Shown here piece by piece: positions 25,889 to 33,200 of a stretch of DNA of 64,000 nucleotides (its first letter is position 1; each line of letters opens with the position of its first letter). The position numbers were made by a program, and so were the translations under genes. The stretch is taken from positions 1 to 64,000 of the IMG/VR virus record IMGVR_UViG_2526164662_000021; one strand, given 5' to 3'. The notes below the pieces were generated by a model. That model was not told the DNA's origin, ran no database searches, and saw only the letters and a program-made list of their open reading frames with translations. The DNA comes from a virus (Duplodnaviria; Heunggongvirae; Uroviricota; Caudoviricetes).

Positions 25889-26449
25889 ATGCTAATAGGC
25901 TATGTACGCGTATCAACAAATGAACAAAACACTGCTTTACAACGAAACGCTCTTGAAAGCGCAGGATGTGAGCTAATTTTTGAGGACAAGGCGAGCGGCA
26001 AAAAGGCTGAGCGCCCTGGGTTAAAAAAGGTACTCCGTATGCTTTCCAGAGGTGATACCCTGGTCGTATGGAAGTTAGACCGTCTTGGGCGCAGCATGCG
26101 TCACTTAGTTGTGCTGGTGGAAGAGCTGCGTGACAGAGGCATTAACTTCCGGAGTCTCACTGACTCCATCGACACCAGTACACCAATGGGGCGCTTTTTC
26201 TTTCACGTAATGGGGGCGCTGGCAGAAATGGAACGTGAGCTTATCGTTGAACGTACACGCGCTGGACTTGATGCAGCTCGCGCAGAAGGTCGTATAGGTG
26301 GGCGTCGGCCTAAATACCAAGAAGAAACATGGCAGCAAATGCGGCGATTGCTGGAGAAGGGCATCCCCCGTAAGCAGGTTGCAATCATCTATGATGTGGC
26401 TGTTTCCACGCTTTATAAGAAGTTTCCGGCGTCATCATTTCAATCCTAA
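25889..26449 (+). CDS. cin: Cin serine DNA invertase
   Basis: 186 aa; resolvase/invertase N-terminus MLIGYVRVSTNEQ with catalytic Ser; adjacent to the cix site. Confidence 0.95.
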   Translation: MLIGYVRVSTNEQNTALQRNALESAGCELIFEDKASGKKAERPGLKKVLRMLSRGDTLVVWKLDRLGRSMRHLVVLVEELRDRGINFRSLTDSIDTSTPMGRFFFHVMGALAEMERELIVERTRAGLDAARAEGRIGGRRPKYQEETWQQMRRLLEKGIPRKQVAIIYDVAVSTLYKKFPASSFQS

Positions 26450-26466
26450 ACCTTGGTTTAAGAGAA
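26441..26466. other. cix-like recombination site (left)
   Basis: CAATCCTAAACC-TT-GGTTTAAGAGAA, imperfect 12-2-12 palindrome of Hin/Gin/Cin type at the start of the inverted repeat. Confidence 0.7.
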
Positions 26467-26496
26467 CTCGGTACCAGCGGTGAAAAGATCCCCCTG

Positions 26497-29681: not shown

Positions 29682-30197
29682 TCACTCCGGTTCTTCAGGC
29701 CATTCTGGTTTAGCTGTATCTACACGATAAACCAACACGCTGTAACGCTCCCACGCTTCCAGTTTTGCTCGTTCCTCATCAGTTGCCATATTCAATTTAA
29801 CTGCCCGCTCAAGAGTTGCAATTACTGATTCGGCATGTGAAAGTAAAGCAGCCTTTTTTGATTCAGCTTGCTGTTGTAAATCCGTATCAGAATATATACG
29901 TTTAACAACAGAGTTGTCTCTAAACACCCAACCACCGTTGATATCTACATCTTCAGGTAAACTATCCACTTCTGCTACAGATAATCCTATGGGCCAAAGG
30001 GTTGAGGCGTCATCTGTAATACTGACAACGATATTGTTGCTATCATACGCAATTACCTTTGTACATTCCGAAAATAACTTTTGACATTCATACCAGTCGT
30101 TACCATTTTCATCCAACAGGAATAAAACTCCTGCATCAACAAGCTCTCTTTTATCTTCACCAGGCGTATATGGTGCGAAATTTTTAAAGTTATTCAT
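29682..30197 (-). CDS. U: Tail-fibre assembly protein U
   Basis: 171 aa from ATG at 30197; downstream of S; homologous N-terminus to U'. Confidence 0.75.
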   Translation of the reverse strand: MNNFKNFAPYTPGEDKRELVDAGVLFLLDENGNDWYECQKLFSECTKVIAYDSNNIVVSITDDASTLWPIGLSVAEVDSLPEDVDINGGWVFRDNSVVKRIYSDTDLQQQAESKKAALLSHAESVIATLERAVKLNMATDEERAKLEAWERYSVLVYRVDTAKPEWPEEPE

Positions 30198-30208
30198 ATG
30201 CTCTCTCA

Positions 30209-33200
30209 TTATACTGATGCTGCTGTGTACCATGTACCGTTGATACAATATTGAACCGGTCGATAATAAATTCCGCCGATATTGTCAGCTGAATTACTTC
30301 CTGTTTCTTGAACAATAATACCTGTCATAACCAGTCCGCTTCCTAGATTCTGAGTCCAGGAAACACCATTGCTTGATGGTTTATAACTGGCAGCAGATCC
30401 CATTCTTACGCTTGTCACACAAGACGTTTTTAATGTGTAGCGCGAGTCAAAATTACTATAGTTAGCTGGAAGTATTTGCCCGCCGCACTGGAAGTTACCA
30501 CTGCTATCAAGAAATGCTTGGCCATCTGTACCATTTGATGTTCTTGAGTTGTTAATCATGTAAAAGCCGAATTGACTATTACCAAGACCACCAATAAAGA
30601 ACTTTCTGTCAGCATGATCTTGTCTTAATAATGCCTGGGCGGAACTGGTTGATACCTTATTAAGACCAAAAATAACATTTTGATCTCGCATACTAATCCA
30701 AGAACCTGAGCTGCTATTAACAGAAAATCTGTTTGCATATACCCATGCATTGGTTCTTATATCGCCAGTTACATTGAGTCCATTACCGATTGAAACAGCA
30801 CCATTGGAGTTGTTAATGGTAAGCGGTCTTAAACTATTCCATGTTCCAAGATTGTCACCCGAGGCGGTCAACATGAAGTATGTGCTTGAACCATCGTTTC
30901 GGATAAAGAATCCATAGTTGCCATAGGCAATGCGCAGACCATTCGCCGATTTGGAAATAATCTCGCCAGCAGCAGTTAATCCGCCAGTTAACGCTCCTCC
31001 AGATAGTGGTAAAGCTCCGACATCAGCCGCAGTAGGCTTGTTTTTAGTGTTATACGCTCTGCGCCATCCTGGTGAATAGCTCGTCCCGTTAAACACATAG
31101 ACAAACTCCGCATTAGTGAGTGCGCCAGAGACACTTGTCGTTGTTGCCGTTGTTATACGAATCGTATAATTGTTTGAGCTACTGCCGTTATTAAATACCT
31201 CAATAACTGCGCCAGCCAGTGGAATAATTCCGCATCCTGTTTCGCTGTCTGGTATGGATGCACTATTTGCATACGCCCAAGCACAACGCGCTATCCATGC
31301 CTTTGCATTAAAAGCACCATTATCTCGTAGCAGAGTCACTAATTGCTCTGTTGTTATTGAAGCTCCATTATCACCTGTTTCAAGCCAACCAGTAGGAGAT
31401 GCCGGGCAGCCAATATTTGCTGGTGACAGTGAAATATTCGCCGAACCGTCAAATGACACCCCATTAATGGTACGCGCTGTCTGCAACTTCGTGGCAGTTG
31501 CTGCATTACCTGTTGTATTCTGATTACCAGTCGCATTAACACCAGGTAAATTAATATTCGCAGTACCATCAAAGCTAACTCCGCCGATAGTTCTTGCCGT
31601 CTGTAGTTTTGTAGCGGTAGCAGCATTCCCCGTGGTGTTCTGGTTACCAGTTGTATTTACACCAGGAAGGTTGATATTGGCCGAGCCATCAAATGCCACA
31701 CCGCCAATAGTGCGTGCTGTTTTCAATTTCGTTGCGGTATCGGCGTTCCCTGTCAGCGCTCCGGTGATCCCGCCGTTGAAAGTCTGGCGCGCACTCCATG
31801 TGTTAGCCGTGCTCAACAGGGGGATCTTTTCACCACTGGTACCGAGTTCTCTTAAACCAAGGTATTGGATAACAGCAAGAACGCTTGTTTTGGCCAGAAT
31901 ATCGCGACCGACTGACGTTAAGTCAGTCTGAGAAACAGTGTCTGTACCGGTAAAGTACGGCAATTTATTTGCGCCTGTCGCAAGACCAGCAAGCGCGGTT
32001 AAAGTTGCATCAAGTGGCTGTTTCCCTGCCAGCGCATTTGTCATTGTTGTCGCAAAGTTCGGGTCATTGCCCAGTGCTGCTGCAAGCTCATTCAGGGTAT
32101 CAAGAGCTTCAGGTGATGAGCCGACCAATGCAGAGATAGCAGCCCGTACGTAAGCAGTCGTAGCGATCTGCGTATTGTTTGTGCCCTGTGCAGCCGTAGG
32201 CGCAGTAGGGACACCCGTTAATGCAGGGCTTGCCAAAGGCGCTTTGAGAGCCAAGGCATTGTTGATAGTTGTGCTGTAATTCGGGTCGTTATTGATCGCA
32301 GCCGCTATTTCTTTCAGCGTATCCAGTGTGCCAGGCGCACCGTTGATAAGTGCAGTTATAGCTGCCTTAACAAAGGCTGTATTTGCGATCTGCGTGCTGT
32401 TTGTACCTTGCGCTGCCGTCGGCGCGGTTGGCGTTCCTGTCAGACTCGGGCTTTCTATTGGCGCTTTGGTATCAGCCAGATCTTTTATAGACTTAACAGC
32501 TTTAGGGGTAGCCGCCATTGTTTCGCTGTCGCTGTTAGTTGCGCTACTGAGCTGAACTAATCCCTTTTGCGTTGTGCTTGCATCCTGCGCCGTATACTTG
32601 CTTTTCGCCAGATCGTAGGCTTTTTTAACTGCCAGCGAACTTGCAGCAACATCACTTCTGGTACTGGTTACAGAGTCTGAAATATCAATGCCGATCGTGC
32701 GGTTGATACGCTCGGATGTATCAATCATCTCCTGGGTAATGGCAGATACACCAGCAGGGATATTCACCGTACAAACAAGCAGCTCCCCATCTCCTAACTG
32801 ATATGAATCGGTATAGGTTCTGGCAACAAATTCAGCCGCATGAATATGTGACGCGGTATTCACCTGATAGGTATCTTCTCCAAGGAGGTATCTTCCCTTC
32901 AGCACAATTGCATATTTCTTGCCTGCACTAAGTGCAAGAGAAATATCCTTACGTTGCTGAATAGTTACCTGGTAGAATTCACCAATATCCACCGACGCCG
33001 CGCCTGCGGTTTTATCACCATCCACTGAGGTGATTAACAGGTTCATCCCACCGCCAGGCTTAGGTAAGAAACCGGCATAAAATCCCGGGTCAACAATCCC
33101 CCTGAATTTTCGGTTTAGCGCGGCTGACAGATATGGTTCGTGGTATTGCACATCAGCCACCAGAGCCAACGACTCGGGTGATGGGTAAGTAACTGATGTA

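Follow-up and report, generated by a model that had tools for sequence, protein, structure and literature searches.

A second inverted repeat nested in the invertible tail-fibre segment of a P1-like phage-plasmid, with an inner flip in deposited relatives

Organization of the invertible segment

We analysed a stretch of 64,000 nucleotides of viral DNA (Caudoviricetes; positions 1 to 64,000 of IMG/VR record IMGVR_UViG_2526164662_000021), called the window below, which belongs to a P1-like phage-plasmid and carries the invertible C segment with its tail-fibre genes. Phage P1 is the textbook example of a two-state tail-fibre switch and a widely used vehicle for transduction and DNA delivery. Within the cix crossover sites of the window's C segment lies a second inverted repeat, and in deposited relatives the piece between the arms of this repeat is found in both orientations, independently of the orientation of the whole segment. 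The features of the region are collected in Table 1.

The invertase gene cin and its surroundings (25800-26595) align with P1 without gaps at 99.5% identity, and the Pfam matches of the cin product (4.6e-51 for Resolvase and 1.9e-18 for HTH_7) identify a serine recombinase. It is P1 Cin, not a recombinase of the Min/Pin type or the tyrosine recombinase Rci. The recombinational enhancer annotated in P1 (1908-1979 of the P1 locus used) maps into the same ungapped alignment. The crossover sites cixL (CAATCCTAAACC TT GGTTTAAGAGAA) and cixR stand at the borders of the segment in inverted orientation with matching central dinucleotides, and an independent weight matrix ranked them first and second. 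Between the crossover centres we measured 5406 bp, compared with 4256 bp in P1, in agreement with the size of about 5.4 kb given in a preliminary description of this DNA. Inversion of the whole segment (5.4 kb in the window) by Cin at cixL and cixR is known for P1 and, given the identical sites and the 99.5% identical cin gene, is probable here as well. Both orientations of the cix-bounded segment are found in near-identical relatives (CP057845 vs CP099239, CP057851 and CP099233), not in the window's own molecule. The outer segment thus has every testable component of the P1 Cin/cix system: the invertase gene, the inverted cix pair, the enhancer, alternative 3' ends with chaperones, and both orientations.

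The tail-fibre gene S is read from 33220 to 30209 and is followed by U, whereas on the opposite strand the reading frame of the silent alternative, Sv', stays open from cixL to 29082, with U' coming after it. The constant part of S (Sc, 31860-33220) is 99% identical to P1 Sc. Module A of Sv' sits in the open frame 26497-29082 and is 98-99.6% identical to its relatives. All four modules of the variable parts (A, B, C1 and C2) match tail-fibre families; an NCBIfam search of S and Sv' gave no matches. From these assignments, each alternative 3' end of S consists of a proximal shaft module (B in use, A silent), a conserved trimerisation block, a receptor-binding tip and the tip's own chaperone.

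Table 1 Features of the C segment and its surroundings in the window
Feature	Position	Strand	Description
cin, serine DNA invertase	25889..26449	+	Pfam Resolvase and HTH_7; nucleotide sequence 99.5% identical to that of P1
Recombinational enhancer within the 5' part of cin	25907..25978	+	Homology with P1 annotation only
cixL crossover site	26441..26466	+	Central TT at 26453-26454; 26-mer same as annotated P1 cixL
Left arm, cix-adjoining inverted repeat (I4)	26443..26595	.	153 nt, 97% complementary to 31718-31870
Proximal module A of silent Sv'	26596..28215	+	Predicted shaft and knob, 540 aa; PHROGs tail-fibre families
Left arm, inner perfect inverted repeat (I3)	28216..28421	+	206 nt, 100%; trimerisation block in Sv'; Pfam Gp34_trimer
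Weak cix-like 26-mer in I3 (candidate)	28280..28305	.	TTATCCGAAACG AT GGTTCAAGCACA; partner at 30881-30906
Distal tip module C2 of Sv'	28422..29082	+	Stop codon included; Pfam gp37_C; PHROGs tail fibre
Left arm, innermost diverged repeat (I2 and I1)	28843..29372	.	Sv' C-terminus and U' N-terminus
U', predicted tail-fibre assembly chaperone for tip C2	29097..29642	+	Pfam Caudo_TAP
U, predicted tail-fibre assembly chaperone for tip C1	29682..30197	-	Pfam Caudo_TAP
Right arm, innermost diverged repeat (I2 and I1)	29922..30448	.	U N-terminus and Sv C-terminus
S tail-fibre gene, present orientation	30209..33220	-	1003 aa, ATG start; open reading frame
Distal tip module C1 of currently expressed S	30209..30764	-	Open reading frame; PHROGs tail fibre
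Right arm, inner perfect inverted repeat (I3)	30765..30970	-	206 nt, 100%; trimerisation block in S; Pfam Gp34_trimer
Proximal module B of Sv	30971..31717	-	Open reading frame; PHROGs tail fibre; 249 aa
Three tandem 120-nt (40-aa) tail-fibre repeat units	31433..31750	-	Tandem Repeats Finder: period 120, 2.7 copies, 71% matches
Right arm, cix-adjoining inverted repeat (I4)	31718..31870	.	Partner of 26443-26595
cixR crossover site	31847..31872	+	Central AA at 31859-31860; 26-mer same as annotated P1 cixR
R, upstream gene of the tail-fibre operon	33232..33666	-	Open reading frame; matches P1 R in annotation

Nested inverted repeats

Comparison of the segment with itself, by a repeat search and self-BLAST of the region, revealed the three tiers of inverted repeats that the preliminary description had proposed. 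The outermost pair (I4) was correctly recognised there as adjoining the cix sites; its arms differ by five mismatches, two of them inside the outer cix half-sites. The next pair (I3) encodes the same 68-aa stretch (GEIISKSANGLRIAYGNYGFF...) in frame in both open reading frames, inside the Pfam Gp34_trimer domain. Since both alternatives contain this conserved block in frame and at 100% identity, but on opposite strands, it forms a second inverted repeat nested within the cix sites. A perfect inverted repeat of 206 nt cannot arise by chance, and the architecture is not an assembly artefact, because it recurs in many independent assemblies. The pair had previously been placed at 28219-28420 and 30790-30990; its existence and the shared in-frame block hold, and the second arm was off by about 20-25 nt (true position 30765-30970).

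The innermost pair is diverged. In the repeat search it consists of I2 (28843-29082 / 30209-30448, 240 nt, 90%) and I1 (29069-29372 / 29922-30225, 304 nt, 73%), which BLAST joins into a single pair of about 514 nt at 82.5%. It too had been anticipated, with approximate coordinates, together with an identical C-terminus of Sv and Sv', which we find to comprise the last 63 aa. The longest perfect runs are 206 nt in I3, 95 nt in I4, 56 nt in I2 and 18 nt in I1.

Two observations concern these repeats in other elements. DNA of the trimerisation block occurs as a single copy, at 84-89% identity, in tail-fibre genes of IMG/VR contigs of 13-66 kb (five loci), and positions 57-105 of the block are constant in those contigs except for one base at position 94 in two loci. 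The block resembles a recombination joint that is shared widely. In the related plasmid pMTY2330_IncY (NZ_CP128959), the innermost repeat (4439-4965 / 5507-6033 of its locus) is 93.5% identical over 527 nt, compared with 82.5% over 514 nt in the window (28843-29353 / 29941-30448), a difference suggesting that U and U' have undergone gene conversion in this lineage.

The inner flip in deposited relatives

No identical record was found in the three collections searched, the best matches covering 89% at 96% identity. Several plasmids of the same length from one study matched in different patterns, and we therefore compared them directly, using pRHB13-C03 (CP057845) as the reference. The genomes of this pRHB13/pRHB02 set are Unicycler hybrid assemblies that include PacBio or Nanopore reads (PMC8034854). 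In CP099239, CP057851 and CP099233, the whole cix-bounded segment is inverted relative to pRHB13-C03. In pRHB13-C01 (CP057856), the proximal modules are swapped and the inner 2.7 kb stands in the original orientation, which corresponds to a whole flip combined with an inner flip. pRHB02-C22 (NZ_CP058059) has the inner piece alone inverted, and its sister plasmid NZ_CP099360 shows a whole flip. The pRHB13 and pRHB02 plasmids therefore represent four isomers (reference, whole flip, inner flip only, and both), and in this region they differ from one another solely at marker bases, which lie in the outer half-sites of cix and in the repeat arms. Over 10 kb the pRHB13 records are 100% identical, the exceptions being one marker base within the inner repeat and 2 bases in each outer half-site; their inner 2682 nt are 100% identical and exactly reversed between identical flanks, with no sequence gained or lost. 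The inner breakpoints in these relatives fall in a 191-nt repeat that is homologous to the 206-nt I3 of the window.

Independent evidence comes from pMTY2330_IncY. This plasmid is 99.6% identical to the window through cin and module A and 98-99% identical through B and Sc, and exactly the stretch corresponding to 28216-30970 of the window aligns in reverse, at 95%. With junction probes, the sub-inverted junction A-repeat-C1, which is hypothetical for the window, was present at 97-99% in 14 PLSDB plasmids, and the window's actual junction A-repeat-C2 in 3 plasmids. In nine further PLSDB plasmids, A is joined to a third tip type, and it is the other proximal module that carries C1. At most about 45 of the 237 matching PLSDB records contain the conserved block twice.

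We conclude with high confidence that the inner flip occurs in this plasmid family. The proposal that the internal repeats allow sub-inversions and more than two fibre variants is thus borne out for the 206-nt pair by the pRHB13/pRHB02 isomers and by pMTY2330_IncY. No isomer using the innermost pair (I2/I1) was seen, the inner part aligning as one block in every comparison made. The chimeric S open reading frames are all open in the relatives, and four fibres are predicted in frame for the window (1032, 1358, 1067 and 1323 codons, counted from the listed start of the open reading frame).

Other records of the C segment also deserve mention. In every pRHB13 isomer, the mismatches of the outer cix half-sites stay with the flanks, as expected for a crossover at the central dinucleotide. 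The RefSeq "complete" genome of E. coli M37H contains two tiny linear "plasmids", p9 (NZ_CP092241.1, 2588 bp) and p10 (NZ_CP092242.1, 1773 bp), both of which derive from the C segment of a P1-like element, the two being its inner piece and its proximal module A; they remained unplaced because these inverted repeats interrupted the assembly. In several related plasmids, IS2 (three matches) or IS1 (two matches) is annotated under the C-segment match; such insertions could freeze or disrupt the switch in those plasmids.

Mechanism of the inner flip

Recombination between the two I3 arms would flip the inner 2.75 kb, that is, both tips and both chaperones, independently of the Cin flip. Together, the two switches would allow four fibres: the present B-C1, of 1003 aa, along with A-C2, B-C2 and A-C1. 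Through either flip, each tip would stay beside its cognate chaperone.

We propose that the inner flip proceeds by ordinary homologous recombination between the I3 arms (host RecA-type) and not by a Cin reaction, a reading to which we give a probability of roughly 0.6. It is favoured because the arms are perfectly identical and because they share plasmid-specific variants. The arms are 100% identical in the window, where their perfect run of 206 nt is well in excess of the shortest homology on which RecA can act, and 99-99.5% identical in the relatives, and both arms of each plasmid carry the same plasmid-specific variants at repeat positions 163-171, of which there are three different sets. 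These shared variants require gene conversion between the arms, since exchange at one fixed site cannot produce them. In pRHB13, the marker at repeat position 111 travels with the inner piece, as expected of a reciprocal crossover, and in pRHB02 the markers at repeat positions 36 and 39 stay with the outer module, which places the crossovers between repeat positions 40 and 110. This mapping draws on two informative events only, and positions 57-105 are without variation, so that its resolution is limited to about 40-110; an interval of this size fits both a homologous and a site-specific mechanism.

Several points weigh against homologous recombination between the I3 arms as the account of the window. 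The evidence for sub-inversion comes from relatives rather than from reads of the window's own molecule. Three colonies from one pooled sample represent three different isomers but otherwise agree in sequence, suggesting that the switch operates fairly often, and P1 cin mutants have been described as frozen despite inverted repeats of 0.6 kb, so that RecA-driven inversion would be slow. Both mapped crossovers, moreover, lie in the interval 40-110, which contains a cix-like 26-mer centred at positions 77-78.

The last point leads to the alternative that the inner flip is also catalysed by Cin, at a secondary (quasi) cix site in each I3 arm. The two quasi-sites would be inverted and share a central AT, and they would recombine with each other and not with cixL or cixR, which have TT at their centre; this would make the segment a multiple-inversion system with four sites, comparable in outcome to Min of p15B. 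Cin can use quasi-sites, as Iida and Hiestand-Nauer reportedly described in 1987, and the related plasmid p15B uses six crossover sites. When scored against the window's own cix half-sites (three of them), the candidate 26-mer ranked third in the 64 kb, after the two true cix sites. Its centre falls inside the interval of both observed crossovers, and repeat positions 57-105 are unvaried in the homologues examined, save for position 94 in two loci. The left half of the 26-mer agrees with the published invertase consensus TTATC..AAAC(C/G) (PMC4134206 Table 3); the right half has no outer motif of the TTATC type, and a central AT is found in none of the eight crossover sites examined (six EC958 prophage sites and the window's two cix sites). 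With a matrix built only from the published EC958 prophage crossover sites, the candidate scored 1.7-10.5 bits, compared with 21-30 for true cix sites, and its rank, which varied with the pseudocount, was 6th to 28th of 63975; a matrix that also took in the window's cix sites gave ranks of 4-20. Overall it scores about 14-31 bits below the true cix sites. The exact 26-mer occurs at 8 loci only in IMG/VR, several of them single-copy in tail-fibre genes of other viral contigs, and the argument from conservation is biased by selecting sequences on the 26-mer, which partly forces the invariance of positions 65-90. Nor would site-specific exchange alone explain the variants shared by both arms. We dropped the 26-mer as the main explanation because with the independent matrix its rank falls and its score lies far below those of true cix sites, and we regard Cin catalysis of the inner flip as unlikely. 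Equally doubtful is a true secondary Cin site in the trimerisation block, one whose AT core is palindromic, which would make the segment a four-site, two-tier Cin system. If such a site were present, Cin would shuffle the shaft module and the tip-plus-chaperone module independently; the system would be an equivalent of Min that works with Cin, originated within coding sequence and was overlooked because P1 lacks it. A Cin-catalysed inner flip would also illustrate how a multi-site system can develop from a simple invertase switch.

Less probable still is that there is no meaningful intramolecular sub-inversion at all, the repeats merely reflecting the kinship of Sv and Sv' on opposite strands and the module combinations arising from mis-joined assemblies, or because other phages or prophages exchange DNA with the element at the conserved block. 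Tail-fibre genes are well known for their mosaicism, and unrelated viral contigs contain the conserved block at 84-89% identity; the inner parts of the window and pMTY2330 are 95%, not 100%, identical; and the separate contigs for A and the inner piece in the M37H "complete" genome tell that assemblers struggle here. Against this, exchange between elements offers no explanation for the pRHB13 inner 2682 nt, exactly reversed at 100% between identical flanks, and the repeat marker moves as a reciprocal crossover predicts. The long reads in those assemblies easily span the 191-nt repeat, and these two linkage phases turn up again in plasmids that come from several laboratories.

Relation to known switches and significance

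The segment resembles the P1 Cin/cix system in its cin gene, 26-bp cix sites, enhancer region and Sc (99-100% identical), in its layout (Sc, cixR, Sv, U, then U', Sv', cixL, cin) and in its purpose of switching tail-fibre specificity. It differs in that the cix-adjoining repeat is 153 nt long here and 636 nt in P1, and in that the two alternatives start with different proximal modules and then share the 206-nt perfect repeat, which P1 lacks. P1 holds one copy only of the conserved block, at 73% identity. Because P1 has the 636-nt cix-side repeat and a single copy of the block, the nested repeat is a derived feature and lies outside the classical P1 arrangement. It adds a second, nested invertible unit with four possible fibres in place of two. 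In phage D6, whose annotation we checked for extra cix sites, there are two only, forming a simple two-site segment.

The Min system of p15B has six strong crossover sites and a Pin-like recombinase and shuffles 3' ends only. Like the present segment, Min belongs to a P1 relative, acts in the same tail-fibre operon and yields more than two fibre variants by inversion within one region; unlike Min, the window has P1 Cin and two strong sites only, and its second tier is a 206-nt block of homology in the middle of the variable part. A further parallel is the BREX gene pglX of Lacticaseibacillus rhamnosus, in which nested programmed inversions swap the middle part of the gene (Milman et al. 2023, PMC9881135). 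There, as here, two nested pairs of inverted repeats lie in coding sequence (in the window I4 and I3, which are in frame), combined flips exchange gene parts, and intermediates with a single inversion exist. That system concerns another gene family in another host, presumably with another recombinase, and the PglX intermediates are thought to be non-functional (PMC9881135), whereas the four fibres predicted here are complete, each with a matching chaperone. The use of a conserved coding block as a joint for module exchange is also in line with the modular evolution of tail fibres as attributed to Sandmeier 1994 in PMC4134206. In contrast to that scheme, as far as it is represented there, the joint is present twice in one molecule and in inverted orientation, which makes for a reversible intramolecular flip and not a rare acquisition from another phage.

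The inner nested flip is an addition to the known P1-type switch, present in a minority of P1-like plasmids. In the literature that we searched, which did not reach the older papers on Min, we found no description of a nested inversion in P1-like C segments, and the papers in it treat P1-type segments as two-state switches. The S and S' fibres of P1 recognise different surface structures, the outer core of lipopolysaccharide and the O-antigen (PMC13172314). The nested flip would double the fibre repertoire in a subset of natural P1-like phage-plasmids, which are often carriers of resistance genes, and from one assembled orientation alone the host range of such elements could not be deduced. 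For one and the same plasmid, assemblies may legitimately differ in four ways, or break at these repeats. For the engineering of chimeric P1 fibres, the conserved block may offer a natural in-frame joint.

Tandem repeats and annotation of S

The preliminary description also reported three tandem repeats of about 117 bp in S at 31400-31760 and suggested changes in repeat number. The three units are present, with a period of 120 and at the coordinates given in Table 1. They correspond to residues 491-610 of S, overlap the cixR-side repeat arm and have the form GNAxTATKLxTARTIxGVxFDG..., a common phage tail-fibre repeat that is matched by Pfam Phage_fiber_2 elsewhere in S. The S protein of the window is without 133 aa (399 nt) that P1, pMTY2330 and pRHB13 have; about 93 aa of this stretch form a globular insert, and the rest is one repeat unit. 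The gap is located at 31565-31668 of the window, opposite 7255-7757 of the pMTY2330 locus, and both of its endpoints lie at the same point (GNAAT/ATKL, the stroke marking the endpoint) in two repeat units. Given these shared endpoints, either the three tandem units are the product of a domain deletion bounded by repeats or the relatives carry the matching insertion. This supports the suggestion that the repeats mediate changes in length, although the change takes the form of a 399-nt domain indel bounded by two units and not of steps of 120 nt.

In the PLSDB gene tables of two relatives (5837-7168; 6158-6775), the fibre gene or its silent alternative is given as short fragments or omitted. The reading frames are open in the five relatives checked, and the tables therefore under-report fibre genes.

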